DNA from: an uncultured bacterium
GTDB taxonomy: Bacteria; Auribacterota; JACPWU01
Direction of reading: 5' to 3'
DNA: 32,000 nt
NCBI GenBank assembly: GCA_964640155.1
Contig: CAZXEQ010000007.1
Coordinates: 60,001 to 92,000 of the forward strand
Of the stretch, positions 1 through 16,194 are shown piece by piece; positions within the stretch are counted from its first letter, which is position 1, and each line of letters opens with the position of its first letter. Below the pieces are notes generated by a model. The model ran no database searches. It was not told the origin of the DNA and worked only from the letters and a program-made list of their open reading frames with translations. The position numbers and the translations under genes were made by a program.

Positions 1-2200
1 ACTTTGAAAAAAGGCCGATTAAATGAATTGCCAGAAGAGTTAAAAAATGAAGCAGCTTTGAATGAATGGAAAGATCGGCTTAAAAAAGTTCTTAAGGATG
101 AAGAGTTGGCTTCTCGTCTTACTTTCATTATTGAGCCTCTTCTCAAACAAATTCATCTTTCAGATCAGAGAAAAAATCTTAACCAGATTGCAGAACAATT
201 GGGAAATAAAGATAAGTCAACTAGGGCCAGAATAGAGGCTTTTGAAGCAAGTCTAAATCAGAGAATTACTGAAAAAGAAGCGGCTATCGAAGCTCTTAGA
301 GAATTAGAAAATAAAGGTATGGAAGCTAAGCGGCTTGCTTTTACTGCTCCTGGTGTGACCTATATTGGCATTGGAGATTTGGCTTTTGAAAAATTAGGCG
401 ATCGCGCTCGTAAACTCAGTGAGAGATTCTTCCCTCAAGGGGGCAAGAAGCTTCATAAAGCCAATGTGGATGAAGTGGATAGTGTTCTTGAGGATCAGGC
501 GTTGATGGATTATGTGATGGCGCAACCTTCAGGAGACTTAAGTGCTATAGAGAAAGAAATGTGGACTTTTGCTGGAAGTGTATCAGAAGAAATAAGACCT
601 TTTGGACTCGAGAGAAAAATAGGACTTCAAAAGGAAGAGATTCAAGCACAAGAGACAGAACAAGTTGTTGGGGCAAAGCTTACTCTTTTCACCAAGGATA
701 AAAATAACGATGTCTTAAGATTGACCAAGGCGGGCCGTCAAAGAGCCATGGACGCTTATAATGTGTTACGTCAAAAAATGATGGGACGCAAAGAACTTCC
801 TTCTATGCCGGAGTTTATCAAGATGGTTGAAAAATCATTGAAAGCTCGTGAGCTTCGAAAGAGAGGCGAAGATTATGAAATAGATGATGCCAGCGGTAGC
901 ATTCGATTGATTGAAAAAACAACAGGAGGTATCAATGATCGTCGTGATAGTGCCTTAGGTATTGCCTTGGATGTTTTGAATTCGGATCGTGTAAGGACAT
1001 TAGGTGATAATCGTACCAGTGCTAAGATCAGTGGTGGAGACGTGATTAAGGAACTTTTTGAAGGATTCAGCGGATACAGTGGATCTGTCGATACACGTGA
1101 AGCCAGAAAAGAATTTGAAAAAGGATTTGGAAAGAAGAGTACTCAATTTGTCAGAATTCCTAATTATTCTGCAAGTAAACGCAATATTCTTGCTCCGAAA
1201 ATTTTCAAAAACGATAATGCAGCACAAGCTTGGTTAGAAGAACAGGCGAGAGAAGTTATGCAGCATACGACTGCGATTATCACTTTACGAAGTGTTAAAC
1301 AAGTCGAAGATTTAGCCGCTAAAATGGAAGGGAAAAAAGAATTTAAAGGTAAAGTTCTTATTTTTAGAGGTTCAGAAAATGATGAACAAAGACGTCTGCT
1401 TTTAGCTCAAGCCAGTGAACCAGGTTATGTTTTAATACAAACTATGATCGGGGGTCGTGGAACAGACTGGGGCTTGGCTGATTTTGGATTAACAAAGGAG
1501 ATGTTGGATGAGGCTTTAAAAGGAAAGGGTCTTTCTGAAGGTTTAAGAAAAGCTCAGTTGGATCAATTAGAGGGTATAACCAAGAAATTAGCAGGAAACA
1601 CAGCTAAATTGACACCTGCTGAAGTCACTCAAGCTCGGAATATGAGTCAGACAGAGTTGCAGTCGCAGGATGATCGCTTGAACGAGCAGGTAAATTTTCT
1701 AGAAGAGTTTAATAAGACAGGCGAATCTCTTGATCAAGCCTTAGAGACGGCAAGAAAACAGAAAGGGCTGGCTGAAAAAGCTTTTAATGCTGCGTCTGCT
1801 AATGCTGCGCCTGCGGAAATTAAAGTGGAATTATCGTTAGGGCGTTGGCTTGCTTCTCGACGACTAGAGGTTTTAGAAGCACTTCAGAAATCAGGTCAGT
1901 CTGTGAATGAAGAATTAAAAAATGCAAGAGAAGCAAAAGAAAAGGCTAGCAGAAAACTTCTTGTTCGTGATTTAGAAAAGTTTTTTGAAAATCTTACAGA
2001 AGGAGCTGATGAGGCGCTTCGTAAGAAACTTGACCAAGTCTGTCAGAGAACCTTTATGAAATTTGCTTATGGTTTCTATATCATGCGCAATGTATTTCGA
2101 AGCCGTCGTGTGGATATACAAGTAGATGGCCGTGGTGCCCGACAAGCTGATCCAGGAACTTCCATTGAATTTAGTTCTTTAGAAGAAACAGGAGCTGACA
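1..2200 (+). other. SecA-type DEAD motor region of the giant protein (NBD1 C-terminal part and NBD2)
   Basis: Window versus E. coli SecA, recalled from memory. AFTAPGVTYIGIGDLAF...KLHKANVDEVDSVLEDQA (nt ~340-500) vs AYAADITYGTNNEFGFDYL...KLHYALVDEVDSILIDEA. FEGFSGYSGSVDTRE (nt ~1057-1101) vs YEKLAGMTGTADTE. VRIPNYSASKR vs VVPTNRPMIRKD. IQTMIGGRGTDWGL (1435-1476) vs ATNMAGRGTDI. FRSRRVDIQVDGRGARQADPGTSIEFSSLEE (2095-2187) vs [31 protein letters not shown]. Confidence 0.75.
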
Positions 2201-5200
2201 TTTTAGAAATTATCCAGCCCGGTTTAAGACAAGAGCAGCTGGACGGCCAGCTTCATCAGAAAGGAAAAGAGGGCCGTGATCGAATTGCAGCAAATGAAAA
2301 GAAATATGCCAAGTTCTTGAAGTTGAGAGAGGAATATCTAGATGCTTTAGATAAGTTGGAAACCATGGACGAGAAGGATAAGTCGGGTATTGCCACATTA
2401 CAAAAAGAGCTGAGCCGAATGGAACAAGAGATACAAACGATGAAAGCTGAGGCTCAGTTGAATTTGGATATCAATGATATGGATCAGCGTTTGGAAAAGG
2501 GTGATAAAAACAATGTGGGTTATCATATTTCTGAACGTCTTTCGGATGTTTTTGGAGGCATTCGTGAAGGTACATCGGATGTGACAAGTGTCACAGTGGC
2601 CAAAGCTTTGATTGAAAAAGTCATTGAAGAAGCGAAAAAATCTAAAAATCTTGCCCTTGTTCAAGAGGTTTTGAAAAATGCTTTTGACATTCGAAAGATC
2701 GAAGGCTTGTCTTTAGAGCAATTAGATCTTCTCAAAGAAGAACTCTTGAGTCAGTTGGCTCGTGGAGACATTCAATTAGATGGACAGGTTTTTGAAGAGG
2801 GCTTAAGTCAGGCAAATATGGATTTCATCGATAGACAGCAGGAAATTGAACGTGCGGAAGAAGACGTCGCCAAACTTAAAAAAGCCTTGGAAGATTATCT
2901 GGGAGAATTTACGAAGGGAGTTCAAAATAATATTGTCGATGGGCTTGTAAAGGTTTATGGACCTAAAGAAGTTGGGACAGGTGGATTAGATCTAGATGAG
3001 ATGAGTGCAGCATTTACTGATAAAATGACAGATTGGATTGGGAAGCAAACTCCTGGACCTATTGCGAGTCGTTGGATACGTTATTGGAAGACTGTCTCTA
3101 AATGGACGGCAGCAAAAAGTAAAGGCTTGAGAAGTCGGTCTGCTACTGTTGGGAACTGGATTGCTAAACATGCCCAAGTTGAAGAGCAAAGAAAATATTT
3201 TGAAAAAGCTGCTCGTGCTTGGAACAAAGCCATTGCTCGCCTTGAGAACAGAGGCGAATTGTCAGATGCATACGTTGCTATTGACCGAAAGGTAGAAACA
3301 GAGTCCATTCAGCCGATGGGATCAAATCCATCGGTACGTCAAGTGACTCAGCTTGTGAAGAAACGTGAAGCCGAGAAGCGTAAAGGTCAGGGCGTGACGA
3401 TAGACTTAGCAAAAGCCAAGGCTACGCGTCAGAAAGCAGGAACAACTGCTGGATCTCCTGAGGCTCAACAACCCAAACGACCTGAAGCTGAGACAAGATC
3501 GCTAACCACATTACAGAAATTGATTCAAACTGCAGCGGTCGATGGGAGAGTTAAAGGAACGACAAGGCTTGCTATCCCAAGTGCCGACGGAAATAAATCT
3601 CAGAGATATGACTTTGACCTTACGGCTACAACAGCTCAAGTTTTGAATAGTAATGAAGCAGCTCGCGAGGCCCTTTATAAGGCTCTTGCATCTGGTCAGC
3701 AAGGGGCAGTTAAGGTTGGAGACCGCACCCTTATTTTTGCTAAGAATGCAAGGGGCTTGGTTCAAATCGTAGATGTATCAGATCTGAAGGCGGATAGTGT
3801 TACTCAGGCTTTGACTGAGGCTCAGACAAGAAAAGATGATGTTAAATTTATCTTTGGAGCGTCTGGCCAAGTGAATATCGTTATTGCAAAACCTGGTCAG
3901 ACTTCTTTAGGTGAGAAAGTCACTTTAACGGGAAGCAATCTTTTTGTACATTCAAATATCAATGAAGGAACTGTTGGGTCAGGGAATACTTTTAGAGATT
4001 CGAATCTTTCAAATGCTCAAGTGGGCAATAATAACAGTTTCAATCGAGTAGAAGCGTCAGATGTCACGGTTGGAAATGAATCTCAATTAACCAGGGTAAA
4101 AGTAAATAGTGCTGAAGTTGGAAATGCTTCAAAATTAGAAGTGGTTTCAGCGGTAACAGTCGTTGTAGGTGAAAATTCTCAACTTAAAGATGTACGTGCG
4201 GATCGATCTGTTGTTGCGGGTGATCAAGCTCGGTTAGAAAATGTGACGGCAGAATCAATCGTCGCTGGAGATCGCTCTAGAATGAAGTCAGTGACAGGCC
4301 GCAACGTTGTTGCTCAAGAAGGTGCAGATGTTGAACTCATGAATGCTCAAGCCCTCAATGCTCCTTCCGGAGATTTGACTTTTGGGAAGAATGAAGTTAA
4401 GAGAGGTGGATATAAAGAAGGCGTTTATGAAACAACAGGAGTTTCTGACCGAACGGCTCTTATTGGGCAGATGGAGCATGTTAGAGCAACTGAAAAAGAA
4501 TTATTTGGTGAAACACCTTGGGAAACAATTAAAGGAAAACTCAAAGGTAAAGTAGACAGTCTTATTACCTTGCTTCGCAATCAAGAGCCAACGGGTAGAT
4601 TGAAATGGGGTAAAAAATTCTTAAAGTCAATTGGAACTTACTTCAAAACTTTTGATGAAAGACAAAGGGAACAATCAACTCGAGATCGTGAAAGTGAACA
4701 AAATTTAAGAGCGGATGCGGCAGCTGAAACCCTTTATCCCAATTTTTCAACACCTGCAAGTGAGGTTTATGAAGGTTTAAACAGAAATCTATTTGGCGAA
4801 GAGGAAATGACTCATGTTGGTTTTATCATGGGAACATTAAGTGAAGAAGCGATGGCAAAAGCTATTGAAAGTGGCGTTTTGGAAGAGGGAGAAGATTCGT
4901 CTCAAAGAGTTAGTCCGTCTCCTCGTGCGGTTGCAGAAGGTCTTATTGATTTTGCACAGAGAATTTTAGACTCGGCTAAGGATCAGAGCCCAGCTGATCA
5001 AGAAGTAGCTCAGAAAAAGGTAGAAGCGCTTTGGGAAGCTGCTTTAAAAGTAGATCCTCGTCATGCAAAGACTTTACTCAGAATGGCAGAAACATTGTGG
5101 ACTCGATCACAAGGGAAAAACTTGGAGGCTTCTGAGAGAGAAGAATTAAAGAAGAACTCTCTTGCGTTATATCGGTTGGCTTATCGCGAAGATCCTTCGG

Positions 5201-8200
5201 ATGCTGAAACAGTGGAATCTTATGCGAATGTTTTGATTTCTCAGAACAAATCTGCTGAAGCTATTAAAATGGCTGAACGTTTGGTGAAGGAAAATAAAAC
5301 AAGAGAAAATAAACTTCTCTTAGGAAGAATATTAATGGCTTCTGGTAAGTTTTCTGAGGCCATGAATGTTTTCAGAAAGAATGGAGTTGTCTCTAAGAAA
5401 GTGGAACAGCGTTTGACACAATTAGAAGGCAAGGCAGGCGAGTTAGCTAAAAAGAGAGCAGAATTAGCAAATTTAGATAAACCGAAAAAAGGTGGTTTCC
5501 CAGGTGGAATGTCTCCTGAAATGCTTCAGGGAATGGATCCGGAGATGCTCGGTCAGAATCCAGATCTACTTAGCCAATTGATGGGTGGAGGAGAGCAAAG
5601 GGAATCTACACCTGAAGAGAAAGCCCAGATTGCAGAGCAGAAGAAAAAGTTGGGAGAAGAAATAGAGGTTCTTAGTAAGGGAACAGAAGATTTTGGAATA
5701 ACATTAGAGGAGCTTACTTCTGCTGGTGAAAAGATATCCTCTCAAGGTTTGGCACAAATTTTAATGAAACTCTACGGAGGAAAAATATCTTTAGAAAAAG
5801 CTAAACTTTTAGCGAAGACACTTCGTGAGTTGATGAATACACATCAAGAACTTTCAAAGATGAATGTTGCCCTTCTTCTCGCTATCAATGCAGAAGATTC
5901 TGATTCAATTCCAAGTCTTAAAGCAAAGATGATGAGTCAATTAGCTACTCAAGAAAAAGACATACATACACAAAGGGTGTATGCCTTGGCGGCTGCTTTC
6001 TATAATGAACAGGCCCAAGCTATTTCCGAATTGACACGCCGTCATCCAGAATTAAAAGGTCAAGATCTTTCAAGATTCTTACCCAATATGGAAATTTCTC
6101 AAGTGACTCCTGAGGTAGAAACACCTGCTGTACCGGATCAGACTGAAGCTGCTAAACAAAGCGAGGCTTTGGTAAAAGAAATAGCGGCTCAACAGGAAAG
6201 AGTTGAAGCTCTTAAGAAAGAATCGAAAGAACCTCAAGGAAACCTCGTTGACATACTCACATTATCTGAAGAATCTCAATCCTATGACGAAGATATTAAA
6301 GCTCAGGAAGAAGTGATTAGGAATGCAAAGGCCGAGAGAGACGAAGCTCGTCGCGTACTGACACTTTATAAAATGACGAAAGCTATGGATGAAGTCCAAA
6401 CTCAAGAGCAGGTGATCAATGCATTAAACCAGAAGATTTCAGATGCTCAGAGAAAAATAGAGAATCTTAGGAAGATGTCCTTAAGTCAAAATCTTAGGAA
6501 TGAGATGAGGGCCCGGCAAGGTGATTTTGTGGCTTCCAAAACTCAAGCCGATACAGAAGAAGCAAAAGCTACTCGTGAGCGGTATCTCATTCACGTGACA
6601 AGAGAACTTCAGCAAGCAGAAGAAAAGTTAGGCTCTCTGAAATCTCAACAAAAATGGTCAAATCGTGCGACGCGTGCAACAGAGGCCGTCTTGAACTTTT
6701 CATCGGCTCTCAAAGGTAAAGCGAAGAAGGTGGTTGTGCGCTTACAGTCATTACGACAAAAGCCAAAATTGGTTCCACGTGTTACAGAACAATCACTGGA
6801 AGCTTTAAAGAAGTATTTAAATATGCAAGCGATTGCTCTAAATATCATGGAACAATTACCTGCTCCTTCAGAGCAAACAGCTAAAGATGCTTATGCCAAA
6901 ACTTCTGAAGATTTAAAAGCACAAGCTGTTGTTTGGGAAGAAGAAATGTCAGAAGTTTTGAAGGCACAGCCAGAATTGAAAGATCATTTTATAGAGTTGA
7001 TGGGTATTGATACAACGGACATTTCTTCCACTCCTGCTTACAAAGTGAAACTACTGAAACATTGGGCCGCTGCCATTAAGGAACTGGCTGAAACGATGGA
7101 TGCTAAGGACGAGAAGCGAGCAGCATATATGAAGTTGGTTGAGACCCTTGAGGCAAAAGCCAAAGTTGCGGAAGCTGAAGCGAAGAAGATCGAAGACGAA
7201 AAAGCCAAAGTCCAAGCCGCTGAAGCTGAGGCTAAGAAAGTTAAGCCTGTGAATGTAAATGAAGCTGGTGTGGAAGATCTGATGAAAGTTCAGGGAATAA
7301 CGAAGGTTTTGGCCCAGGCGATTGTTCAAGCTCGTCAACAATTGACTATCTCGGGAAAGCCGGGTCCATTCCGAAGTCTCTCAGATTTATTCTTGGTTCC
7401 CGGCTTGAGACGTTTATTTCCTATGAGCATAGATGAATTAGAAGATCGATATGCAACGATAAGTGCTCAGCTTAAAGTAGAGACAACAAAACCTGATTCT
7501 CCAGAAGTTTTAAAACAGAGACAATCTTTACAAGGCGAGCTTCAAAGACTTTCTTCTCTACATCAAAGCGTGAAGAAATTTGCTCAAAATATTACTTTTG
7601 GAGAAGAGGGTACTGTCTATTATCCTGAAACAGTAGAGCAAAGGGTGATGGAGGCCTTAGAATCAGAAATTCAACGGAGAAGTGTTCCACATTTGGAATT
7701 CCTTCGTAATGAGTTAGCTAGAATTAAGGCTGAAAAAGTACGATGTCTTAAAGAAACTTCAAATTCTGATGTTAAAGCGCGTAAGACTGCTTTGAATGAA
7801 TATGCTGAATTGGAAAAAGAAGAGAAGCGCTATATTGCATTGGAGAAGAAACTACAGAGTAAGACCCTTTCGGAAGTGATAGAAGTTGTAACTCAGCTCG
7901 AATTAAATCCTTTGATGAAAGCTTATAGTAAAATTTTAATGCAGTTGGCAAAATTAGGTGAGAGCAATCTTACAGTTCAAGAACATGCGAAACGCTATGA
8001 AGCTTTAAGAAGAGATATGGTTAAGCTTAATCGGCAGTTTTCAGATTTATCTGTACAAACTGATCAGGTAAAAAATGTAATGGAAAGTCTAAAGAATTAT
8101 ACAAGTCAGATGACCGATTATCTTCTTGTAGCTCGGCGCGTCAATCGTGTTTCATCTTTAGCTGAAAATCTTCGAAGGCAGTTCAATGAAAATGAAGGGA

Positions 8201-9180
8201 CTTATGGCGTTTCAAATTTCTTTGAAAATGCAGCAAGATTTGTGAGAGCTGAGTTGACGCGTGAATATGGGAATTCAGAAGATACAACGATTGACCACTT
8301 AGGAGACTTGTATCTTTTAGTTTTTGAGTATCATTCATTGAGTGATCAGCAAAAGGAAGCTTTGGGAAATATTGCGAGGAACATTGATAATCCTGATGTG
8401 AGAAGTGGAATGGTGCAAGTCCTAGAAATTATGAAAGGTACTATTTCACTACAGAATGGGCAATTGGGAAGCCTTAAAGCTTTATTAGGACAGTTTTTTA
8501 AACAGCTTCCTAAAGCTTTAGAAATTAAAATTCTAGAAAATGTGATTCAAAGATATGAAAATATTTTAGCCAAAAACACCAGTAATATAGAGGTGAAAAC
8601 AATATTAGGTCTCTTATATGCTTCCCAAATTCAATCAGGGGTTACTTTAAATTTGGAAACTTTACTAAAAGTGAAAGGTTATCTTGAAGAAAGTTTAGTT
8701 GCAGACGCTCAAAATGCGGAGAAGATCTCTGCATTGAAAGAAGTGAGACTTCAAATTCAAAAAGAACTTGTTAGACAAGCTAAAGCGATGGCAGACAAAC
8801 CTGAAAATGCTGCTAATGCAGATGAGTATACGGATAGAGTTTTGGATATTCAAAATTGGCTTCGGGCATATCATCAAAATTTAGATTCTGCTGAGCAAGA
8901 AGCTTTAGAGAAAGAATTAAGAAATCAATTGCCCAAAGAAGCTGTGGATAAAGCGCGTGAAACATTGTTTGTAGATGGTTTAATGAAGCTTGCCAAATCT
9001 GGGAAGCCATTGACTTTAAGAGCAGTGGGCCCCGTGTTAGCCCCGCTCTTTGGCCCTGTTGCGCGTATCATTCGTGATGGTTGGGTCGACATTGATCAAC
9101 CTGTTCATTCTCCTTCTACTCCTCTTCCAAAGAAAGTATCCAATCCTTCCTCTGGAATCGATCATAGCCGATCGACGTAA
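1..9180 (+). CDS. Giant SecA-like ATPase fusion protein, 5'-truncated by the window edge (>3059 aa). SecA-type motor followed by ~2350 aa of coiled coil, solenoid repeats, TPR-like repeats and a ComEA-like HhH module
   Basis: Single open frame of 9177+ nt with no stop until TAA at 9178-9180. SecA-like motifs appear in the canonical order (see finding). The Walker A region expected ~100 aa before DEVDS is not in the window, so the gene continues upstream and the TTG at nt 4 is probably not the start. Confidence 0.85.
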   Translation, partial: TLKKGRLNELPEELKNEAALNEWKDRLKKVLKDEELASRLTFIIEPLLKQIHLSDQRKNLNQIAEQLGNKDKSTRARIEAFEASLNQRITEKEAAIEALRELENKGMEAKRLAFTAPGVTYIGIGDLAFEKLGDRARKLSERFFPQGGKKLHKANVDEVDSVLEDQALMDYVMAQPSGDLSAIEKEMWTFAGSVSEEIRPFGLERKIGLQKEEIQAQETEQVVGAKLTLFTKDKNNDVLRLTKAGRQRAMDAYNVLRQKMMGRKELPSMPEFIKMVEKSLKARELRKRGEDYEIDDASGSIRLIEKTTGGINDRRDSALGIALDVLNSDRVRTLGDNRTSAKISGGDVIKELFEGFSGYSGSVDTREARKEFEKGFGKKSTQFVRIPNYSASKRNILAPKIFKNDNAAQAWLEEQAREVMQHTTAIITLRSVKQVEDLAAKMEGKKEFKGKVLIFRGSENDEQRRLLLAQASEPGYVLIQTMIGGRGTDWGLADFGLTKEMLDEALKGKGLSEGLRKAQLDQLEGITKKLAGNTAKLTPAEVTQARNMSQTELQSQDDRLNEQVNFLEEFNKTGESLDQALETARKQKGLAEKAFNAASANAAPAEIKVELSLGRWLASRRLEVLEALQKSGQSVNEELKNAREAKEKASRKLLVRDLEKFFENLTEGADEALRKKLDQVCQRTFMKFAYGFYIMRNVFRSRRVDIQVDGRGARQADPGTSIEFSSLEETGADILEIIQPGLRQEQLDGQLHQKGKEGRDRIAANEKKYAKFLKLREEYLDALDKLETMDEKDKSGIATLQKELSRMEQEIQTMKAEAQLNLDINDMDQRLEKGDKNNVGYHISERLSDVFGGIREGTSDVTSVTVAKALIEKVIEEAKKSKNLALVQEVLKNAFDIRKIEGLSLEQLDLLKEELLSQLARGDIQLDGQVFEEGLSQANMDFIDRQQEIERAEEDVAKLKKALEDYLGEFTKGVQNNIVDGLVKVYGPKEVGTGGLDLDEMSAAFTDKMTDWIGKQTPGPIASRWIRYWKTVSKWTAAKSKGLRSRSATVGNWIAKHAQVEEQRKYFEKAARAWNKAIARLENRGELSDAYVAIDRKVETESIQPMGSNPSVRQVTQLVKKREAEKRKGQGVTIDLAKAKATRQKAGTTAGSPEAQQPKRPEAETRSLTTLQKLIQTAAVDGRVKGTTRLAIPSADGNKSQRYDFDLTATTAQVLNSNEAAREALYKALASGQQGAVKVGDRTLIFAKNARGLVQIVDVSDLKADSVTQALTEAQTRKDDVKFIFGASGQVNIVIAKPGQTSLGEKVTLTGSNLFVHSNINEGTVGSGNTFRDSNLSNAQVGNNNSFNRVEASDVTVGNESQLTRVKVNSAEVGNASKLEVVSAVTVVVGENSQLKDVRADRSVVAGDQARLENVTAESIVAGDRSRMKSVTGRNVVAQEGADVELMNAQALNAPSGDLTFGKNEVKRGGYKEGVYETTGVSDRTALIGQMEHVRATEKELFGETPWETIKGKLKGKVDSLITLLRNQEPTGRLKWGKKFLKSIGTYFKTFDERQREQSTRDRESEQNLRADAAAETLYPNFSTPASEVYEGLNRNLFGEEEMTHVGFIMGTLSEEAMAKAIESGVLEEGEDSSQRVSPSPRAVAEGLIDFAQRILDSAKDQSPADQEVAQKKVEALWEAALKVDPRHAKTLLRMAETLWTRSQGKNLEASEREELKKNSLALYRLAYREDPSDAETVESYANVLISQNKSAEAIKMAERLVKENKTRENKLLLGRILMASGKFSEAMNVFRKNGVVSKKVEQRLTQLEGKAGELAKKRAELANLDKPKKGGFPGGMSPEMLQGMDPEMLGQNPDLLSQLMGGGEQRESTPEEKAQIAEQKKKLGEEIEVLSKGTEDFGITLEELTSAGEKISSQGLAQILMKLYGGKISLEKAKLLAKTLRELMNTHQELSKMNVALLLAINAEDSDSIPSLKAKMMSQLATQEKDIHTQRVYALAAAFYNEQAQAISELTRRHPELKGQDLSRFLPNMEISQVTPEVETPAVPDQTEAAKQSEALVKEIAAQQERVEALKKESKEPQGNLVDILTLSEESQSYDEDIKAQEEVIRNAKAERDEARRVLTLYKMTKAMDEVQTQEQVINALNQKISDAQRKIENLRKMSLSQNLRNEMRARQGDFVASKTQADTEEAKATRERYLIHVTRELQQAEEKLGSLKSQQKWSNRATRATEAVLNFSSALKGKAKKVVVRLQSLRQKPKLVPRVTEQSLEALKKYLNMQAIALNIMEQLPAPSEQTAKDAYAKTSEDLKAQAVVWEEEMSEVLKAQPELKDHFIELMGIDTTDISSTPAYKVKLLKHWAAAIKELAETMDAKDEKRAAYMKLVETLEAKAKVAEAEAKKIEDEKAKVQAAEAEAKKVKPVNVNEAGVEDLMKVQGITKVLAQAIVQARQQLTISGKPGPFRSLSDLFLVPGLRRLFPMSIDELEDRYATISAQLKVETTKPDSPEVLKQRQSLQGELQRLSSLHQSVKKFAQNITFGEEGTVYYPETVEQRVMEALESEIQRRSVPHLEFLRNELARIKAEKVRCLKETSNSDVKARKTALNEYAELEKEEKRYIALEKKLQSKTLSEVIEVVTQLELNPLMKAYSKILMQLAKLGESNLTVQEHAKRYEALRRDMVKLNRQFSDLSVQTDQVKNVMESLKNYTSQMTDYLLVARRVNRVSSLAENLRRQFNENEGTYGVSNFFENAARFVRAELTREYGNSEDTTIDHLGDLYLLVFEYHSLSDQQKEALGNIARNIDNPDVRSGMVQVLEIMKGTISLQNGQLGSLKALLGQFFKQLPKALEIKILENVIQRYENILAKNTSNIEVKTILGLLYASQIQSGVTLNLETLLKVKGYLEESLVADAQNAEKISALKEVRLQIQKELVRQAKAMADKPENAANADEYTDRVLDIQNWLRAYHQNLDSAEQEALEKELRNQLPKEAVDKARETLFVDGLMKLAKSGKPLTLRAVGPVLAPLFGPVARIIRDGWVDIDQPVHSPSTPLPKKVSNPSSGIDHSRST
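3925..4356 (+). repeat. Nine tandem 16-residue (48-nt) protein repeats, consensus V-G-x-x-S-x-L-x-x-V-x-x-x-x-x-V; predicted beta-solenoid
   Basis: Exact 16-aa register read from the translation: LTGSNLFVHSNINEGT / VGSGNTFRDSNLSNAQ / VGNNNSFNRVEASDVT / VGNESQLTRVKVNSAE / VGNASKLEVVSAVTVV / VGENSQLKDVRADRSV / VAGDQARLENVTAESI / VAGDRSRMKSVTGRNV / VAQEGADVELMNAQAL. The repeats are divergent at DNA level. Confidence 0.7.
5026..5385 (+). other. TPR-like helical repeat region inside the giant protein
   Basis: ~34-aa helical units with an A/L/Y pattern, e.g. ALYRLAYREDPSDAETVESYANVLISQNKSAEAIKMAERLV and LLLGRILMASGKFSEAMNVFRKN. Judged by eye only. Confidence 0.45.
7249..7404 (+). other. ComEA-like helix-hairpin-helix (HhH) DNA-binding module inside the giant protein
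   Basis: VNVNEAGVEDLMKVQGITKVLAQAIVQARQQLTISGKPGPFRSLSDLFLVPGL fits the ComEA C-terminal pattern (I/V)N(I/V)N.A..E.L..(L/V).GI....A..I...R...G.F.S..DL..V.G(I/L). Confidence 0.6.
8914..9180 (+). repeat. Direct repeat DR1: last 89 codons of the giant gene, in frame; left boundary of the TA insertion
   Basis: Aligns with 11662-11930 with 16 substitutions and one 2-nt indel (C4 run versus C6 run). Similarity starts abruptly at 8914/11662 and stops exactly at the stop codons. Confidence 0.95.
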
Positions 9181-10014: not shown

Positions 10015-10929
10015 TTAACCCCATGGACCAGAATTTTTCCATTCTTGATCAAAATTTTTATTTTGATCAATTGCCTTAATGGGCTTCAGAAGAAATTTTT
10101 CAATTGCCTCGGCAACATCTTTAAGCTTGTCCGGAACATTTTTGATTTTTCCCTTTGTCAGAAAAGCTTTCCAAAGCATTTGACGATCAGAGCTCTCGTC
10201 ATAAATTTGTTCAGCAAAAAGTGGAGATTTTGTAGGAATTACTGTCTTTCGATGGGTAAAAGTTTTTTTGAGAGCTTCTACAAGAGTCTGACCTTTGAAA
10301 TGAAATTGCTGAGCCATGAGCCAAAGATCATAAAAATCTTTCATTCTGCTATTAAGAAGTCCAAGCTTTATCATAGATTCAAATTTTTCAGCGACAACAC
10401 TTTCTTGCGGGTATCCTTTTAAATGTGGTTTTGGAAAATCTAAAATTACAGGATAATCAATCACTATAGATTTAGGATAAATCATATCTCCAAATCCAAA
10501 GTCTATTTGCATCGATATTCGTGAACGCTCAAGAAAACCTTTAAACTTAATTCTCACACCTTCGTAGTCTGCATCCTCTTTGATTTTTTGCCCTTTGATA
10601 GTGTTAGGATCATATACAAGACCATCTGATATGACATTAACTCTACAAATCTTTTTAACTACTTCTTCAATCTTGTTTACTTGATTGTCATAATGGGCAA
10701 GGAAATCAATGTCCAATGTTGCTCGTCTTTCAGGCACTTGCCATACTGTAAACATCAATGCCCCTTTTAGAATGAATTTATTGGCATATTCAGATTGACT
10801 GAGTCGATAGAGGAAGCGCTCCATCGCATAATATTGAAGGATCTCTGCAAAGGGTCGATTTAATTCTATTGCTTTATTCTGAATTCTATTTCGAACGGAT
10901 GCTTCAATATTTTTAATTTTTTGCGTCAC
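10015..10929 (-). CDS. AbiEii/AbiGii-family nucleotidyltransferase toxin (DUF1814, type IV TA)
   Basis: The family-typical motif RATLDIDF follows GALMF..W. The size fits the family. The ORF track start is 10974. I prefer GTG at 10929 because it gives VTQKIKNIEASVRNR..., a typical family N-terminus, and a 4-nt GTGA overlap with the abiEi stop. Confidence 0.8.
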   Translation of the reverse strand: MTQKIKNIEASVRNRIQNKAIELNRPFAEILQYYAMERFLYRLSQSEYANKFILKGALMFTVWQVPERRATLDIDFLAHYDNQVNKIEEVVKKICRVNVISDGLVYDPNTIKGQKIKEDADYEGVRIKFKGFLERSRISMQIDFGFGDMIYPKSIVIDYPVILDFPKPHLKGYPQESVVAEKFESMIKLGLLNSRMKDFYDLWLMAQQFHFKGQTLVEALKKTFTHRKTVIPTKSPLFAEQIYDESSDRQMLWKAFLTKGKIKNVPDKLKDVAEAIEKFLLKPIKAIDQNKNFDQEWKNSGPWG

Positions 10930-11528
10930 AATATTGTCTCCAAAAGTGGTTTGATAATATTTGCAACACGGCAAATATCAGCATAGAACATAATTTCCTT
11001 GGGAGATATACCTTTTTCAAGAACCGCTGTTTTAAGGGCGTCTCGTGCAATATTGATTCCTATTTTATTTCTAAACTTAAAGCAATCAGCCACAGTTTTA
11101 GCCACATTATAAACCTTCACCTTATAACCATCTATTTCTTGCTCTACAATTCCAGCGTTCCAAGTTTCTTTGGAAAAATGATAGTAATGAACAGGAGGAT
11201 AATTAATTTTATTGGCATGGTTCCCTTGTGGTATAGCAAGATCTATGAGCCTTGGTATCTCACTGGTTACTTCATGAAATGCCAGGGCAGAGAGTAGACA
11301 AATCACTCCTTTAGGAGATTTCATTGAAACCATAATAAGATCAGGATTGGATAGGGAAGTGCTCATCGTAAGTTTATACAGAGCACGATCTATTTTCTGA
11401 ATTTGTTTCAAATGCAGTAGGACTTTAAGATCAGATTTGTTAAAACCTGTATGGATAATGTCAGAGTATGTAGCTAGTCCTCTCCTCTTTTTGAAAAAGT
11501 TAATCAAACGCTCTCTTTTAGAGATCAT
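10926..11528 (-). CDS. AbiEi-family antitoxin / transcriptional regulator (type IV TA)
   Basis: 200 aa. The N-terminal winged-helix-like segment (...LATYSDIIHTGFNKSDLKVLLHLKQIQKIDRALYKL) resembles the AbiEi_4 domain. It lies immediately upstream of, and overlaps, the DUF1814 toxin gene. Confidence 0.8.
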   Translation of the reverse strand: MISKRERLINFFKKRRGLATYSDIIHTGFNKSDLKVLLHLKQIQKIDRALYKLTMSTSLSNPDLIMVSMKSPKGVICLLSALAFHEVTSEIPRLIDLAIPQGNHANKINYPPVHYYHFSKETWNAGIVEQEIDGYKVKVYNVAKTVADCFKFRNKIGINIARDALKTAVLEKGISPKEIMFYADICRVANIIKPLLETIL

Positions 11529-12011: not shown

Positions 12012-12476
12012 ATGTGTGGGCGGCGTTTACCTCAAGCTGGATTTACTCTCGTCGAAATCCTTTCGATTTTACTGATTATTTCTGTCGTTATAGCCATTGT
12101 TATTCCTATTGCAAAAACATCTTTTGATAAGATGAGAATTCATCAAACCCAAGCAGATATTGCGGCTTTAGAATCAGCTTTGGAGGGATATAAATCAGCT
12201 AACGGGCAATATCCAGATGCCAGTCCGGCTAGTAGAGTACCAGTGAGTGCATTAAGCACTTATATGAAATTTCCTGCGAAAAGAGTCATTTCAAATATTT
12301 TTTATGATTCATGGAATGTCCCTTATCGTTATGCCAGGCCAGGGACGAATAATACTGCCTTTGTAGATTTGGCTTCAGCAGGACCTGATCGAGCTATTGA
12401 TGATTCGACTTGGCAGACAAGTACGTCGTCTGGGAATAATGCGGATAATATTGATAATTGGAGTCAAAAGAGATGA
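12012..12476 (+). CDS. GspG-like type II secretion / type IV pilin-like pseudopilin
   Basis: Prepilin leader and methylation motif QAG|FTLVEILSILLIISVVIAIVIP with Glu at +5. The C-terminal motif DSWNVPYRY...AGPD...ADNIDNW parallels GspG DPWGNPY.Y...G.DG...DI.NW. Confidence 0.85.
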   Translation: MCGRRLPQAGFTLVEILSILLIISVVIAIVIPIAKTSFDKMRIHQTQADIAALESALEGYKSANGQYPDASPASRVPVSALSTYMKFPAKRVISNIFYDSWNVPYRYARPGTNNTAFVDLASAGPDRAIDDSTWQTSTSSGNNADNIDNWSQKR

Positions 12477-13027
12477 AAATGGATAGGGGAGTTAAAAATG
12501 CCTATACACTTGTTGAAGTACTCATTGTGGCTTCTATTATTGGTGTTCTTGCGAGTTTCTTACTCAATGCAGCTATTAATAGTCGTAAGAAAGCCAATTT
12601 AACTAAAACACATGCCTTATTAGAATCTATCAGTGCGGCTCTCAGAATGTATCAAGATGATTTTGGTACTTATCCTCCTCAAAACGTGATTTATCGTTAT
12701 GGAACTCAGATTGCTGCTTCATCCGCAGATTGTCTTTATTATTATTTAGGCGCAACTTTTAAAAGAGGGGTGAATGCGTCTATTTTTGCAGGCCCTTATA
12801 TGAAATTTACGGGAGATGAACTTCAAACGACTCAAGTTTCTGCTTGTGATTTTGATGGGGATGGCGCTATTGACGATGATTTAAAAAGAATTTTAGATCC
12901 ATGGGGACAGGCCTTGCGATTTCGTAGTTCACCTACTCAAAATCTTTCAAGTTTCGATCTTTATTCCTTAGGGCCTGATAAGACGAATAATAGTGGATCA
13001 GGAGACGATATTAATAATTGGGAATAA
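12473..13027 (+). CDS. Second GspG-like pseudopilin
   Basis: MKMDRGVKNA|YTLVEVLIVASIIGVLASFLL (Ala instead of Gly at -1, Glu at +5). C-terminus DPWGQALRF...LGPDK...GDDINNW. The ATG at 12473 overlaps the upstream stop (ATGA), so I prefer it to the track's TTG at 12458. Confidence 0.8.
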   Translation: MKMDRGVKNAYTLVEVLIVASIIGVLASFLLNAAINSRKKANLTKTHALLESISAALRMYQDDFGTYPPQNVIYRYGTQIAASSADCLYYYLGATFKRGVNASIFAGPYMKFTGDELQTTQVSACDFDGDGAIDDDLKRILDPWGQALRFRSSPTQNLSSFDLYSLGPDKTNNSGSGDDINNWE

Positions 13028-13091
13028 ACCCTTCGAGAAATGCTGATCTGCTGTGTTTCCTGGCGTGAATTAAAACTTTCAAGGAAATTTA

Positions 13092-13230
13092 TGCGCCATG
13101 CAGGGATCGGCGCCTTCGGGTCTTCGCTTCGCTACGCCCTCCGGTCGGCCACCCGTCCCGACTAGATGTCATCAATCATGCACAGCATGATCGATATTTA
13201 TATTCTGTCGGGGGACTCCATTCGATCCCT
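13092..13230 (-). other. tRNA-appended GC-rich module A (downstream of tRNA-Lys); ends with an 18-nt copy of the tRNA-Lys 3' end
   Basis: Read on the minus strand: AGGGATCGAA (13230-13221), complementary to the tRNA-Lys T-loop TTCGATCCCT. Then GGAGTCCCCCGAC, a 10-bp hairpin (13171-13195), GTCGGGA, the 17-mer CGGGTGGCCGACCGGAG (13155-13139), a small hairpin and GAAGGCGC. It ends with CGATCCCTGCATGGCGCA (13109-13092), identical to 13316-13299. Confidence 0.85.
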
Positions 13231-13298
13231 TCAGGAATACTTTCTAGTCTTTAAGGTAGAATATGCGCGTGATTTATAAGAAGAGAATTTTTGAAAAT

Positions 13299-13371
13299 TG
13301 CGCCATGCAGGGATCGAACCTGCGACCCACTGATTAAGAGTCAGTTGCTCTACCAACTGAGCTAATGGCGC
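13299..13371 (-). tRNA. tRNA-Lys (anticodon CTT)
   Basis: The reverse complement folds as a cloverleaf: GCGCCAT TA GCTC AGTTGGTA GAGC A ACTGA CTCTTAA TCAGT GGGTC GCAGG TTCGATC CCTGC ATGGCGC A. 73 nt, no encoded CCA. Confidence 0.95.
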
Positions 13372-13450
13372 TTTAAATTAAGTCGAAATAATAGCAGGTC
13401 GCCTTCTAAATAGGTAGTCAAAATTTTATCTTTTTTGATACCATCTTATC

Positions 13451-13480
13451 TTGCATTACTTCTCCATCTTGTCTTATATT
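13451..13480 (+). promoter_or_regulatory. Putative promoter of tRNA-Leu
   Basis: TTGCAT (13451-13456), 18-nt spacer, TATATT (13475-13480), 14 nt before the tRNA 5' end. Confidence 0.5.
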
Positions 13481-13493
13481 GTACGTTCTTTAT

Positions 13494-13575
13494 GCCGCGG
13501 TGGCGGAACTGGCAGACGCGTAGGATTTAGGATCCTATGCCGTAAGGCGTGTGGGTTCAAGTCCCTCCCGCGGCA
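13494..13575 (+). tRNA. tRNA-Leu (anticodon TAG), class II with long variable arm
   Basis: GCCGCGG..GCG GAACTGGCAGA CGC G TAGGA TTTAGGA TCCTA TGCCGTAAGGCGT GTGGG TTCAAGT CCCTC CCGCGGC A. 82 nt, no encoded CCA. The T-stem has one T:T mismatch (positions 50:64). Confidence 0.9.
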
Positions 13576-13634
13576 AGGAATTGGAATAAGAATTTTTTGA
13601 AAAGAAAGCTCACAGACTTTTGGTTCTTTACGTT

Positions 13635-13762
13635 GGGACTTGAAGGGAGCCCCGACACTTTAATGATGCACATCTGCCAGCGGCCGATGTGCGACGTTTA
13701 GTTGGGGCGGGTGGCCGACCGGAGTCCCAAAGGGACGGAGGCGCCAAGTCCCTCCCGCGGCA
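13635..13762 (+). other. tRNA-appended GC-rich module B (downstream of tRNA-Leu); ends with an 18-nt copy of the tRNA-Leu 3' end
   Basis: GGGACTTGAA (13635-13644), complementary to the tRNA-Leu T-loop TTCAAGTCCC. Then GGGAGCCCCGAC, a hairpin (13668-13692), GTTGGGGC, the 17-mer CGGGTGGCCGACCGGAG (13708-13724), hairpin GTCCC-aaa-GGGAC and CGGAGGCGC. It ends with CAAGTCCCTCCCGCGGCA (13745-13762), identical to 13558-13575. Confidence 0.85.
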
Positions 13763-13785
13763 GAATTTGTGGATTAAATGTTCAG

Positions 13786-13825
13786 TCCTCGCTTCACTTG
13801 AAGAGAGGATGGGATTAAGTTTTTG
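13786..13825 (+). terminator. Possible intrinsic terminator after module B
   Basis: Hairpin TCCTC-g-CTTC actt GAAG-a-GAGGA (13786-13809). A T5 run begins at 13820, displaced about 10 nt from the stem. Confidence 0.35.
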
Positions 13826-13831
13826 AAAATG

Positions 13832-13859
13832 TTGTAAATTCTTAAATACACGCTATAAT
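13832..13859 (+). promoter_or_regulatory. Putative promoter of tRNA-Gly
   Basis: TTGTAA (13832-13837), 16-nt spacer, TATAAT (13854-13859). Confidence 0.5.
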
Positions 13860-13897
13860 TATGCCTCATTTTAGAATTTAGGTTTTTGATTTAGAAA

Positions 13898-13972
13898 GCG
13901 GCGGTAATTCAGGGGTAGAATGCCTGCTTGCCAAGCAGGATGTCGTGGGTTCAAATCCCATCCGCCGCTCCA
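13898..13972 (+). tRNA. tRNA-Gly (anticodon GCC), CCA encoded
   Basis: GCGGCGG TA ATTC AGGGGTA GAAT G CCTGC TTGCCAA GCAGG ATGTC GTGGG TTCAAAT CCCAT CCGCCGC T CCA. Confidence 0.95.
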
Positions 13973-14027
13973 ACTGTTTAGTAAGAATATAGCGAAGGAA
14001 TGTTGCTAGTTTTAAGAGCGTCACAGA

Positions 14028-14196
14028 GGGATTTGAATAGGAGGCCCGACCAAAATATTAGTAAATCATGCAGTGCATGATTTGCGACTACTAGGAGGGC
14101 CGGGTGGCCGACCGGAGGGTGAGTCCTGAAAGGACGAATCCCGGAGGCGCCAAATCCCATCCGCCGCTCCAACTGTTTAGTGAGAATATAGCGAAG
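14028..14196 (+). other. tRNA-appended GC-rich module C (downstream of tRNA-Gly); ends with a 46-nt copy of the tRNA-Gly 3' end plus trailer
   Basis: GGGATTTGAA (14028-14037), complementary to the tRNA-Gly T-loop TTCAAATCCC. Then GGAGGCCCGAC, a hairpin (14063-14083), GGGCC, the 17-mer CGGGTGGCCGACCGGAG (14101-14117), hairpin GTCCT-gaa-AGGAC and CGGAGGCGC. It ends with CAAATCCCATCCGCCGCTCCAACTGTTTAGTGAGAATATAGCGAAG (14151-14196), which matches 13952-13997 with one mismatch. Confidence 0.85.
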
Positions 14197-14298
14197 TTCC
14201 CTTCTAAGCTAAGAGGGGTGAGGGGAGTTATAAAAAAGTAACCCCTCAAACTCCCCTTTGAAATAAAAGGGAGAATATAAAATAAATAGGAGTTCTTT

Positions 14299-15549
14299 GT
14301 GAAAGTTGTTGTTGAAGATCAAAAGCCTTGTCAAAAAGTTTTAAAGATTCAATATCCAGCTGAGAAATTAAAGTCGGAACATCAAACGATGCTCACTGAA
14401 TTTCAAAAGCAGGCAAAGATTCCAGGGTTTCGACCGGGTAAAGCTCCTATTAAAACAGTCGAAACAAAATTTTTTGATGATATTAAGTCAGAAGTTTTGA
14501 GAAAAATTTTGCCTGAGATTTGTAAAGAGGCTTTGCAATCGGAAAAAGTTTTAGCTGTCAGTGATCCTTCTGTGGATCAGATGGAATATGATTTAGAAAA
14601 AGGACTCTCATTTCGTGCTGTTGTAGATATTCCTGCCAAAGTCACTTTGCCTGATTATAAGAAGATTAAACTAGAAAAAAAATCGACTGAAGTTACAGAG
14701 GAAGATATTCAAAAAGCCATCGATGGTCTTCGTGAACATCATGGCGTTTTTGAGCCCGTTGCGCCGCGTCCCCTACAATTAGGAGATTTTGCGATTGTTG
14801 ATTATACTTCTGTGAGTCATGAGAAAACGCCTAAAAGAGATCATCGAAAAAATGTTTTAATCTCTATTCAGAAGGAAGGAGAAAATCATTTAACGGATCA
14901 ATTGATTGGGCTAAAGCCAGGGGAGTCAAAGCAAGTTGTTTTGAAAGCAGAACACGAGCATCCTGAAATGATCTTTGATGTAAAACTTCATGAGATTAAA
15001 CAGAAAAAACTTCCTGAATTAGATAGTGAATTTTTGAAAACTTTGGGTGAAGTTAAAACAGTAGATGAACTTCGCGAAAAAGTGAAGTCAGATATCAGTT
15101 CTTATCGTGAAAATGCATCGCAAGAGGCTTTAAAAAATGAAGCCATTAAAATCTTAAGTGAAAGAGTAGATTTTGATGTTCCTGCATCTCAGGTGAGTCA
15201 TGAGTCTGAGAAGCTTTACACAGAGCTTGTGAATCGTGTGCGACAAGGAGCTGTTTCATCCAAGAGTTTGCAAGATCCACAAGTGCTTAAAGAGCTAGAA
15301 GCCGAAGCCAAAAGAAGAGTCAAAGTGGCTTATTTATTGTATGAAATTGCTCAGAAAGAAAACTTAAAAGTCTCGGATGATGAGTTGAATCAAGATTTAG
15401 AAAAGGCAGCACAAAAATTAGGAAAAAATGTAGAAGAGATTCGTGCTGATTTTGAAAAAAATAATCGCTTAGAAGCTTTAAGAGCCAGACTCACTCAAGA
15501 TAAGGTTATAGATTTCATTTTGAAGAGTGCTATAATCAAAAATCAGTAA
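14299..15549 (+). CDS. tig: Trigger factor
   Basis: 416 aa. GFRPGKAP ribosome-binding signature near the N-terminus. GTG start preceded by AGGAG. Lies upstream of clpP-clpX as in many bacteria. Confidence 0.95.
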   Translation: MKVVVEDQKPCQKVLKIQYPAEKLKSEHQTMLTEFQKQAKIPGFRPGKAPIKTVETKFFDDIKSEVLRKILPEICKEALQSEKVLAVSDPSVDQMEYDLEKGLSFRAVVDIPAKVTLPDYKKIKLEKKSTEVTEEDIQKAIDGLREHHGVFEPVAPRPLQLGDFAIVDYTSVSHEKTPKRDHRKNVLISIQKEGENHLTDQLIGLKPGESKQVVLKAEHEHPEMIFDVKLHEIKQKKLPELDSEFLKTLGEVKTVDELREKVKSDISSYRENASQEALKNEAIKILSERVDFDVPASQVSHESEKLYTELVNRVRQGAVSSKSLQDPQVLKELEAEAKRRVKVAYLLYEIAQKENLKVSDDELNQDLEKAAQKLGKNVEEIRADFEKNNRLEALRARLTQDKVIDFILKSAIIKNQ

Positions 15550-15579
15550 CATAGTTCTTAGCCCTGAATAGGAGATCCA

Positions 15580-16194
15580 ATGACATTAATACCTTTTGTA
15601 GTTGAGCAATCGGGTCGGATGGAACGTTCGTATGATATTTATTCTCGCCTTTTAAAAGACAGAATTATTTTTATTGGAACTCCAATTGATGACAATGTCG
15701 CGAACGTTGTTGTAGCACAAATGCTTTTTCTTCAAACGGAAGATCCAGACAAAGACATTAATGTTTATATTAATAGTCCCGGGGGATCGGTCACAGCAGG
15801 TTTGGCCATTTACGATACAATGCAATTTGTAAAATGTGATGTCACGACTTATTGCTTAGGTCAGGCGTCGAGCATGGGATCGCTTTTGTTATGTGCAGGT
15901 GAAAAAGGAAAGCGTTATGCATTGGCTCATTCGAGAATCATGATTCATCAACCTTGGGGTGGGGTGCAAGGTACAGCCAGTGATATTCATATTCAGGCTC
16001 AGGAAATTTTAAGACTAAAAGAAGAATTGAATAAGATTCTGTCTTTTCATACAGGACAACCTTTAGAAAAAGTTGTTCAAGATACTGATCGAGATCATTT
16101 TATGTCGGCAGAAGAAGCTTTAACTTATGGGCTTGTAGATAAAGTGGTGAAGGGCCCTCTGGAAACAGGGACAGCTTCTCCTAAGAAGGAATAG
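15580..16194 (+). CDS. clpP: ATP-dependent Clp protease proteolytic subunit
   Basis: [25 protein letters not shown] (catalytic Ser), HQP (His) and DRD motifs. Confidence 0.97.

Follow-up and report, generated by a model that had tools for sequence, protein, structure and literature searches.

Three tRNA genes on a 32,000-nucleotide (nt) stretch of DNA from an uncultured bacterium of the Auribacterota (contig CAZXEQ010000007.1, positions 60,001 to 92,000; the whole stretch is called the window below) are each followed, in an otherwise AT-rich background, by a GC-rich module on the strand of the tRNA, and every module carries a short segment, the anti-T, that is complementary to the T-loop and T-stem of the tRNA upstream of it. 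These modules are insertions into the T-loop that duplicate the 3' part of the tRNA and that are present or absent among close relatives. We consider it likely that they are members of a widely distributed family of tRNA-linked elements that are small and non-coding, inserted at the T-loop and folded into a junction closed by a helix (P1) between the anti-T and the duplicated tRNA end, with the mechanism that we infer for them below. The original prediction, made from the letters of the window, had drawn attention to the anti-T segments; it had not recognized the 3' copy as a direct repeat of the insertion type, the polymorphism among relatives, or that the design is known from the tRNA-linked repeats (TLRs) of Escherichia coli.

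Anti-T segments and their own tRNAs

The three 10-mers lie, letter for letter, where the original prediction had placed them, and all three are reverse complements of T54 to N63 in the respective tRNAs (Table 1). That such a match should be beyond chance, as was also claimed, is weakly supported by the window itself, which offers about four informative covarying positions, and relatives were collected because of this. A scan for exact patterns, covering one genome per species, yielded 56 loci, of which about 41 are true members, the other 15 being chance matches in GC-rich coding DNA. The hosts of this genome set are Omnitrophota, Chlamydiae, Auribacterota, TA06, Elusimicrobia, Ratteibacteria and Planctomycetales. 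From its members a covariance model (R1) was built, which detected 12 additional, more divergent copies when the genome-set loci were searched with it, and a metagenome set, independent of the genome set, comprised 76 model matches, 67 of them distinct. In all, about 120 more copies, adjoining 18 tRNA isotypes, follow the rule seen in the window, and the outcome that would have refuted the original prediction, family members with an anti-T at odds with the neighboring tRNA, did not arise. Wherever a genome-set copy has enough DNA on its 5' side, a tRNA precedes it by 17-330 nt on the same strand.

For the 38 distinct genome copies, the anti-T agreed with its own target at position 57 in 34 cases (18 expected if the two were independent), at position 59 in 34 (12.7 expected), at position 63 in 32 (19 expected) and at position 64 in 24 (9.8 expected). 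The mean contiguous match was 6.5 nt to the own target vs 1.4 nt to the targets of other members, and when targets were permuted among members none of 20000 permutations reached the observed complementarity. The metagenome set replicated the result, with 88% of P1 cells paired, 6/8 pairs changed on both sides and 0/500 shuffles as good. These data confirm that the match between the anti-T and its own tRNA is real and far above chance.

Within the window the modules share an invariant 16-mer, GGGTGGCCGACCGGAG, which occurs three times and nowhere else in it (0.03 occurrences expected by chance). All three modules end in the invariant sequence CGRAGGCGCC, after which a copy of the tRNA runs from R57 to the 3' end. 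The core of module A is ordered as junction TGGAG, helix P2 with an inner hairpin, GGGU, helix P4 (GGCCGACC:GGCGCC) and a P3 hairpin, with GGCGCC at its end. A promoter-like site lies at 13832-13859, 5' of tRNA-Gly.

Table 1. Location of the tRNA genes and of the parts of modules A, B and C in the window (MFE, minimum free energy).
Feature	Position	Strand	Basis and remarks
tRNA-Lys(ctt)	13299..13371	-	ARAGORN; Rfam tRNA, 74.7 bits
Module A direct-repeat copy 1	13315-13299	-	Last 17 nt of tRNA-Lys, GATCCCTGCATGGCGCA; repeat analysis
Module A spacer	13231..13298	-	AT-rich; no copy-to-copy conservation in alignments
Module A anti-T, AGGGATCGAA	13221..13230	-	5' strand of closing helix P1 and start of the GAA junction motif
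Module A core	13109..13220	-	Covariance model R1, 83.3 bits; invariant 16-mer; pair counts
Module A direct-repeat copy 2, GATCCCTGCATGGCGCA	13092..13108	-	3' strand of P1 and tRNA-like 3' tail
tRNA-Leu(tag)	13493..13576	+	ARAGORN; Rfam tRNA
Module B direct-repeat copy 1, AAGTCCCTCCCGCGGCA	13559-13575	+	Within tRNA-Leu; repeat analysis
Module B anti-T, GGGACTTGAA	13635..13644	+	
Module B core (GGGAG ... GGCGCC)	13645..13745	+	R1, 90.6 bits
Module B direct-repeat copy 2, AAGTCCCTCCCGCGGCA	13746..13762	+	Repeat analysis
tRNA-Gly(gcc), CCA encoded	13898..13972	+	ARAGORN; Rfam tRNA
Module C direct-repeat copy 1	13953-13997	+	45 nt; extends 25 nt beyond the tRNA-Gly end
Module C anti-T, GGGATTTGAA	14028..14037	+	
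Module C core (TAGGAG ... GGCGCC)	14038..14151	+	R1, 87.4 bits; MFE fold with P1-closed junction, z = -3.2
Module C direct-repeat copy 2	14152..14196	+	45 nt; one mismatch vs copy 1

RNA architecture of the modules

Of the roles suggested for the anti-T in the original prediction, the closing of a helix with the 3' copy is the one borne out: RNAalifold and pair counts place P1 at the base of a three-way junction, the folds of modules A and C recover it, and the consensus of RtT, the Rfam family of the E. coli repeats, has the same outer helix. The two strands of P1 are the anti-T and the opening 7-8 nt of the repeat copy downstream; in the genome set 91.7% of its cells are paired, 6/8 pairs are compensatory and 0/500 shuffles do as well, with slid controls reaching only 35-48%. 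The strand opposite the anti-T in P1 being copied from the local tRNA, the anti-T has to fit this tRNA as well, which is the source of the covariation. Single-sequence MFE folds recover the P1-closed junction for modules A and C (z = -2.3 and -3.2).

P1 is followed by the junction J1/2, (G)AAGGGAG, and by P2, whose length varies: many Omnitrophota copies have a short P2, and copies of the window type have a longer one that contains an inner hairpin. Four of the five basal P2 pairs are compensatory, and one pair has 16 G-U/U-G cells; since these would be A-C on the opposite strand, the structure belongs to the tRNA-sense strand, which is what one would expect if the RNA were co-transcribed with the tRNA. 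Next come the junction GGGU, 3' of P2, and P4, GG(C)CG(A)CC:GGCGCC, and the core is completed by a GGA/GRA internal loop together with a P3 hairpin that varies among copies and in which GNRA-like loops are frequent. The cells of P4 are 100% paired and the helix is invariant in the pattern-selected members; three independent compensations occur in the divergent copies, namely G to U plus C to A in L009 and L044 (G:C to U:A; loci carry L numbers), loss of the bulged C in L051, and deletion of a G plus C to G in L012, giving GGCC(A)CC:GGGGCC. A competing core pairing, GGUG:CGCC with a 5-nt bulge, reached 96.8% paired cells and was rejected in favor of P4, which is fully paired and has compensatory variants that disrupt the rival. 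The boundary between GGCGCC and R57 is the exact point at which P4 and P1 meet.

The original prediction had counted complementarity of 10 out of 10 to the intact tRNA, and the letters do match. The GAA of the 10-mer, opposite T54-C56, belongs to the conserved junction motif GAAGGGAG, and it is replaced by GAT or GAG in several members and by GAGAA in L012, L019 and E. coli with the tRNA unchanged, so that pairing with T54/T55 is not established and the full count overstates the part under selection.

In the window subtype, tRNA end and core are separated by a nearly constant 128-145 nt, and the spacers are not conserved. Spacers of the Omnitrophota type (L006, L009, L004, L018, L029, L032) hold two more conserved hairpins with covariation between the tRNA end and the anti-T, ACTTTTT...AAAAAGT directly after the tRNA end and CCGTGR...YCTACGG, and given these the mobile unit may be larger in this subtype. 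In L055 (about 4020-4075), and also in L100 and L122, some 52 nt (CCTGCCGCTCTCTGCGGCATGCAGGGCATTCAATATGCAATAGAATAGCCTCA) lie within the AAGGGAG box of a module that is otherwise normal and are missing from the sister L033; they may be a small nested insertion.

Insertion at the T-loop and its possible origins

The direct repeat always starts after GGTTC or AGTTC (C56|R57). Across the family it is 13-45 nt long, its far end lying as a rule 0-6 nt, and never more than 25 nt, beyond the tRNA end, and the whole element measures about 100-190 nt, always on the strand of the upstream tRNA, whose gene stays intact. An empty site was found in a contig (L037) of an Auribacterota metagenome-assembled genome. 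The contig is 91% identical to window positions 12495-16000: it lacks exactly 13109-13298, that is, module A, and keeps a single copy of the 17-nt repeat. The tRNA-Gly module of the same contig matches window module C in its 3' half, with a different spacer and P2 and a repeat of about 20 nt vs 45 nt; its spacer shares 77% identity with the module B spacer. This indicates either independent insertion or recombination between copies. A second case of empty and filled sites involves the tRNA-Gly(tcc) that precedes the trigger factor gene: there is no module there in L031, and there is one in L038, L035, L023 and L044. Tandem arrays occur in L003, L010 and L018. Clustering of open reading frames (ORFs) from 41 loci revealed no recurrent integrase, transposase or reverse transcriptase and only housekeeping neighbors (tig, clpP, dnaX, recR), and a scan of viral contigs gave zero family matches and thus no sign of a phage carrier.

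Some family copies do not adjoin a tRNA (L117 8311-8435, minus strand, with L137 2458-2582, plus strand; L090/L176; L052/L180), and their anti-T still matches a T-loop-like sequence 10-30 nt upstream. The L117/L137 element lies directly 3' of a leuD-like stop codon, and in L137 its anti-T matches CTCAACTTCCG in the last codons. In L008 and L135 the target was first taken from the 3' sequence to be a tmRNA, which was rejected, as ARAGORN finds none and Rfam shows tRNAs that ARAGORN had missed because they are interrupted by group I introns (Intron_gpI; L008 6191-6413, plus strand, 61.6 bits; L135 3203-3416, minus strand, 69.3 bits). In these two loci a single tRNA gene thus has both an intron and a T-loop-linked module.

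Under the reading that we favor, the element would be co-transcribed with the upstream tRNA, and P1 would prevent the anti-T from unfolding the T-arm of the real tRNA. P1 would also present a tRNA-like 3' tail, and through this tail the tRNA 3'-end machinery is proposed to free a stable, structured RNA. The complementarity of the anti-T would in addition set the integration site of new copies.

Several points weigh against this account. The MFE fold of module B pairs the anti-T not with the 3' copy but with the P3 strand GUCCC; the P3 stem of this module, GUCCC/GGGAC (13724-13739), mimics the T-loop/stem sequence AGUCCC of tRNA-Leu, so that the anti-T is able to pair with P3 instead. L117/L137 and L090/L176 have no recognizable downstream repeat despite the upstream match of their anti-T, and P1 with the 3' copy therefore cannot be the sole relevant pairing. 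The strict invariance of the core was partly imposed by the exact-pattern searches used to gather members. Co-transcription is argued solely from orientation and from the tRNA-to-module intervals, in which no terminator was detected. The presence/absence polymorphisms fit insertion and precise deletion by recombination between the repeats alike, and the E. coli relatives of the modules are described as having 'no known function' (PMC8144298).

The same data were examined for the possibility that the modules are RNA-guided mobile elements that target themselves, which we regard as unlikely. The anti-T would then be a guide, in the manner of the internal guide sequence (IGS) of group I or the exon-binding sequence (EBS) of group II introns, and would pair with the T-loop strand of the tRNA gene or pre-tRNA. 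The GGCGCC 3' end of the element would be joined to R57, the three-way junction would be a catalytic or protein-recruiting core, and guide and repeat would be re-templated from each new target. It would account for an insertion point fixed to one nucleotide, at the P4/P1 junction, in more than 100 copies and 18 isotypes, and for a core highly conserved across phyla with no mobility protein nearby in the 41 loci. It is this combination of one-nucleotide precision at a helix junction, a target-matched anti-T and no protein partner that keeps RNA-guided insertion under consideration. On the other hand, the catalysis is hypothetical, the known ribozyme families give no match even at E <= 10, neither a reverse transcriptase nor any other path back to DNA was found, and complementarity to T54/T55 is not kept in all members.

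The pace at which anti-T segments change bears on the same question. The cores of L010 and L048 are 97.9% identical and their anti-T segments differ at 2/8 positions, those of L022 and L019 are 96.5% identical with differences at 4/8 positions, and in both pairs the differences track those of the targets. Moreover, the anti region of L003, L043, L011a and L022 is a decayed, imperfect, near full-length inverted copy of tRNA positions 54-76, the complementarity in L022 spanning 16 nt; for L043 an origin from a tRNA-Met site was considered and rejected, its anti-T being a decayed inverted copy of the 3' end of its own tRNA-Thr. Such copies and pairs speak for re-templating, but a single metagenome-assembled genome is the source of all the pairs, and in it concerted evolution would equally produce near-identical cores with different anti-T segments. 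We therefore did not accept the pairs as proof: copying of the anti-T from each target and within-genome homogenization of the core explain them equally well. RNA-guided, possibly self-catalyzed, insertion as the source of new copies appears to us improbable, as does the broader proposal that the modules and the E. coli TLRs together are protein-independent, RNA-guided mobile elements whose guide and 3' repeat are copied from the target.

That the module instead regulates maturation of the tRNA in cis, the anti-T competing with the upstream T-arm in the primary transcript to give an alternative fold and the 3' copy serving as a decoy that settles the choice of fold and so tunes processing or yield, would suit a 10/10 match to the intact tRNA that includes T54-C56, the constant distance from tRNA end to core in the window subtype despite unconserved spacers, and the upstream match in copies that have no downstream repeat. 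We judge it very unlikely, since GAA is a junction motif rather than a covarying pair, the positions opposite 57-58 are not complementary in E. coli and L012/L019, presence/absence polymorphism implies that the tRNA does not need the module, and tandem arrays are hard to square with regulation. Finally, integrase-mediated integration into tRNA genes classically leaves a direct repeat that extends from the T-loop as far as the tRNA 3' end or past it, and the module repeats show this pattern, yet it is highly improbable that they are the attL and attR sites of a T-loop-targeting tyrosine integrase, with the module as an attP-adjacent remnant of a deleted island, because one core meets the repeat at one exact nucleotide for 18 isotypes, unlike what a single integrase family would give, no integrase occurs in the 41 loci and no viral contig matches, and the unit is just 100-190 nt, forms tandem arrays and has RNA-type covariation with G-U pairs.

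Whichever account holds for the likely family of tRNA-linked elements, it offers over 100 natural pairs of guide and target. These fix the junction at C56|R57, show which helices are under selection and define the constructs with which three ideas could be tested, namely that the RNA inserts itself, draws in a host enzyme or merely hitch-hikes on tRNA processing. The first of these, if true, would amount to a programmable RNA that retargets itself.

Around the tRNA cluster, one ORF of 3058 aa (4-9180, plus strand) occupies the first 9 kb of the window. A gene for an AbiEii-family nucleotidyltransferase toxin (10015-10974, minus strand; Pfam E = 2.7e-39) is overlapped by an upstream ORF (10926-11528, minus strand), which has no Pfam match and is probably its AbiEi-type antitoxin partner; the two lie about 2 kb from the cluster. 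Two neighboring genes for type II secretion G-like pseudopilins with an N-terminal methylation motif follow (12012-13027, plus strand), the second stopping 65 nt short of the end of module A. At 14197-14262, between module C and the trigger factor gene, stands a terminator-like double hairpin (GAGGGGTGAGGGGAGTT ... AACCCCTCAAACTCCCCTTT) that escaped a simple terminator scan; it is conserved in L037.

Comparison with known systems

A permissive Rfam scan of window positions 12900-14400 (E <= 10) matched only the tRNAs, with no ribozyme, RtT or intron match on the modules. The hammerhead, twister, twister-sister, pistol, hatchet and HDV-like models gave no module match at this threshold, and neither did the Intron_gpI model, although it finds the introns in the L008 and L135 tRNAs. 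The likeness to group I introns lies in one continuous segment on the 5' side that is complementary to both sides of the junction, as the IGS is in P1/P10, and in the possibility of tRNA targets. The modules differ from them in being located after a complete tRNA rather than interrupting it, in having no group I catalytic core and in a C-G instead of a U-G pair at the junction. With T-loop-targeting integrative elements they share a direct repeat from the T-loop to or past the tRNA 3' end and a tRNA that is kept intact, but they are units of 100-190 nt without integrase or cargo, with one core for 18 isotypes; no tyrosine or serine integrase was found between or beside the repeats in the ORF clustering of 41 loci or among the window ORFs. 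Their direct repeat of 13-45 nt and variable length separates them from IS200/IS605 miniatures and IS110 bridge-RNA elements, and no transposase lies near any copy in the neighborhoods of the 41 loci, whole genomes not having been searched.

The closest counterparts are the TLRs of E. coli, reportedly known since 1978, for which we know of no accepted origin or function. E. coli K-12 has 22 copies at ten loci, each of which repeats the upstream tRNA or 5S rRNA exactly in its 3'-terminal 18-19 bp (PMC8144298), and a mobilome study reported raised, unexplained coverage of the tyrT-rttR region under stress (bioRxiv 10.1101/2024.07.17.603846); our literature search for T-loop-inserting mobile RNAs yielded nothing beyond the TLR papers. 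At the tyrT locus each of the 178-bp repeats (rttR) ends with the last 19 nt of tRNA-Tyr and contains GGGGAAGGAT, the complement of ATCCTTCCCC, and Rfam RtT (RF00391) scores the four units at 133-138 bits. K-12 repeats after serX (GGGGGGAT:ATCCCCCC) and after arg tRNAs (GGGAGGAT:ATCCTCCC) likewise match their own tRNAs; the match spans 8-10 nt for Tyr, Ser and Arg and only 5 nt for the lys tRNAs (AGGAT:ATCCT). The last repeat of the lys operon, after lysQ (L061, E. coli K-12 780300-782000), has a different 5' part, GATTCGAACCTGC, which is complementary to the 5' strand of the T-stem and the T-loop (positions 49-60) and not to 59-66.

Like TLRs, the modules lie just 3' of a tRNA and share its strand, in all three cases in the window and in the family copies with enough upstream DNA, end in a tRNA copy from the T-loop to the 3' end (17, 17 and 45 nt in the window), carry a GNRA-type hairpin flanked by GAG/GAG just 5' of that copy, and form tandem arrays. 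In both, a 5' segment and the copy of the tRNA 3' end make up the outermost helix, and a single-stranded acceptor/CCA tail comes after it, as in the RtT consensus, GgGaaGGAU:AUCCuuCcC and then ccaCCACCA. The repeat of the window family starts at R57 and that of E. coli at A58/A59, RtT lacks the helix GGCCGACC:GGCGCC as well as the junction AAGGGAG, and no copies adjoining 5S rRNA were seen in the window family. The RtT model (gathering threshold 45 bits) has no match in window positions 12900-14400 even at E <= 10, and R1 scores the E. coli units marginally (E 0.04-0.3); given such scores we claim a shared architecture and not homology. Judged on that architecture, the window family is a new relative of the TLRs with a different core sequence. 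Its hosts are Auribacterota, Omnitrophota, Chlamydiae, TA06, Elusimicrobia and Planctomycetes rather than Enterobacteria, so that a TLR-like design, with a different and highly conserved core, extends to at least six other phyla and adjoins 18 tRNA isotypes; together with precise presence and absence among relatives, this turns an enterobacterial oddity into a general class of tRNA-targeting elements.

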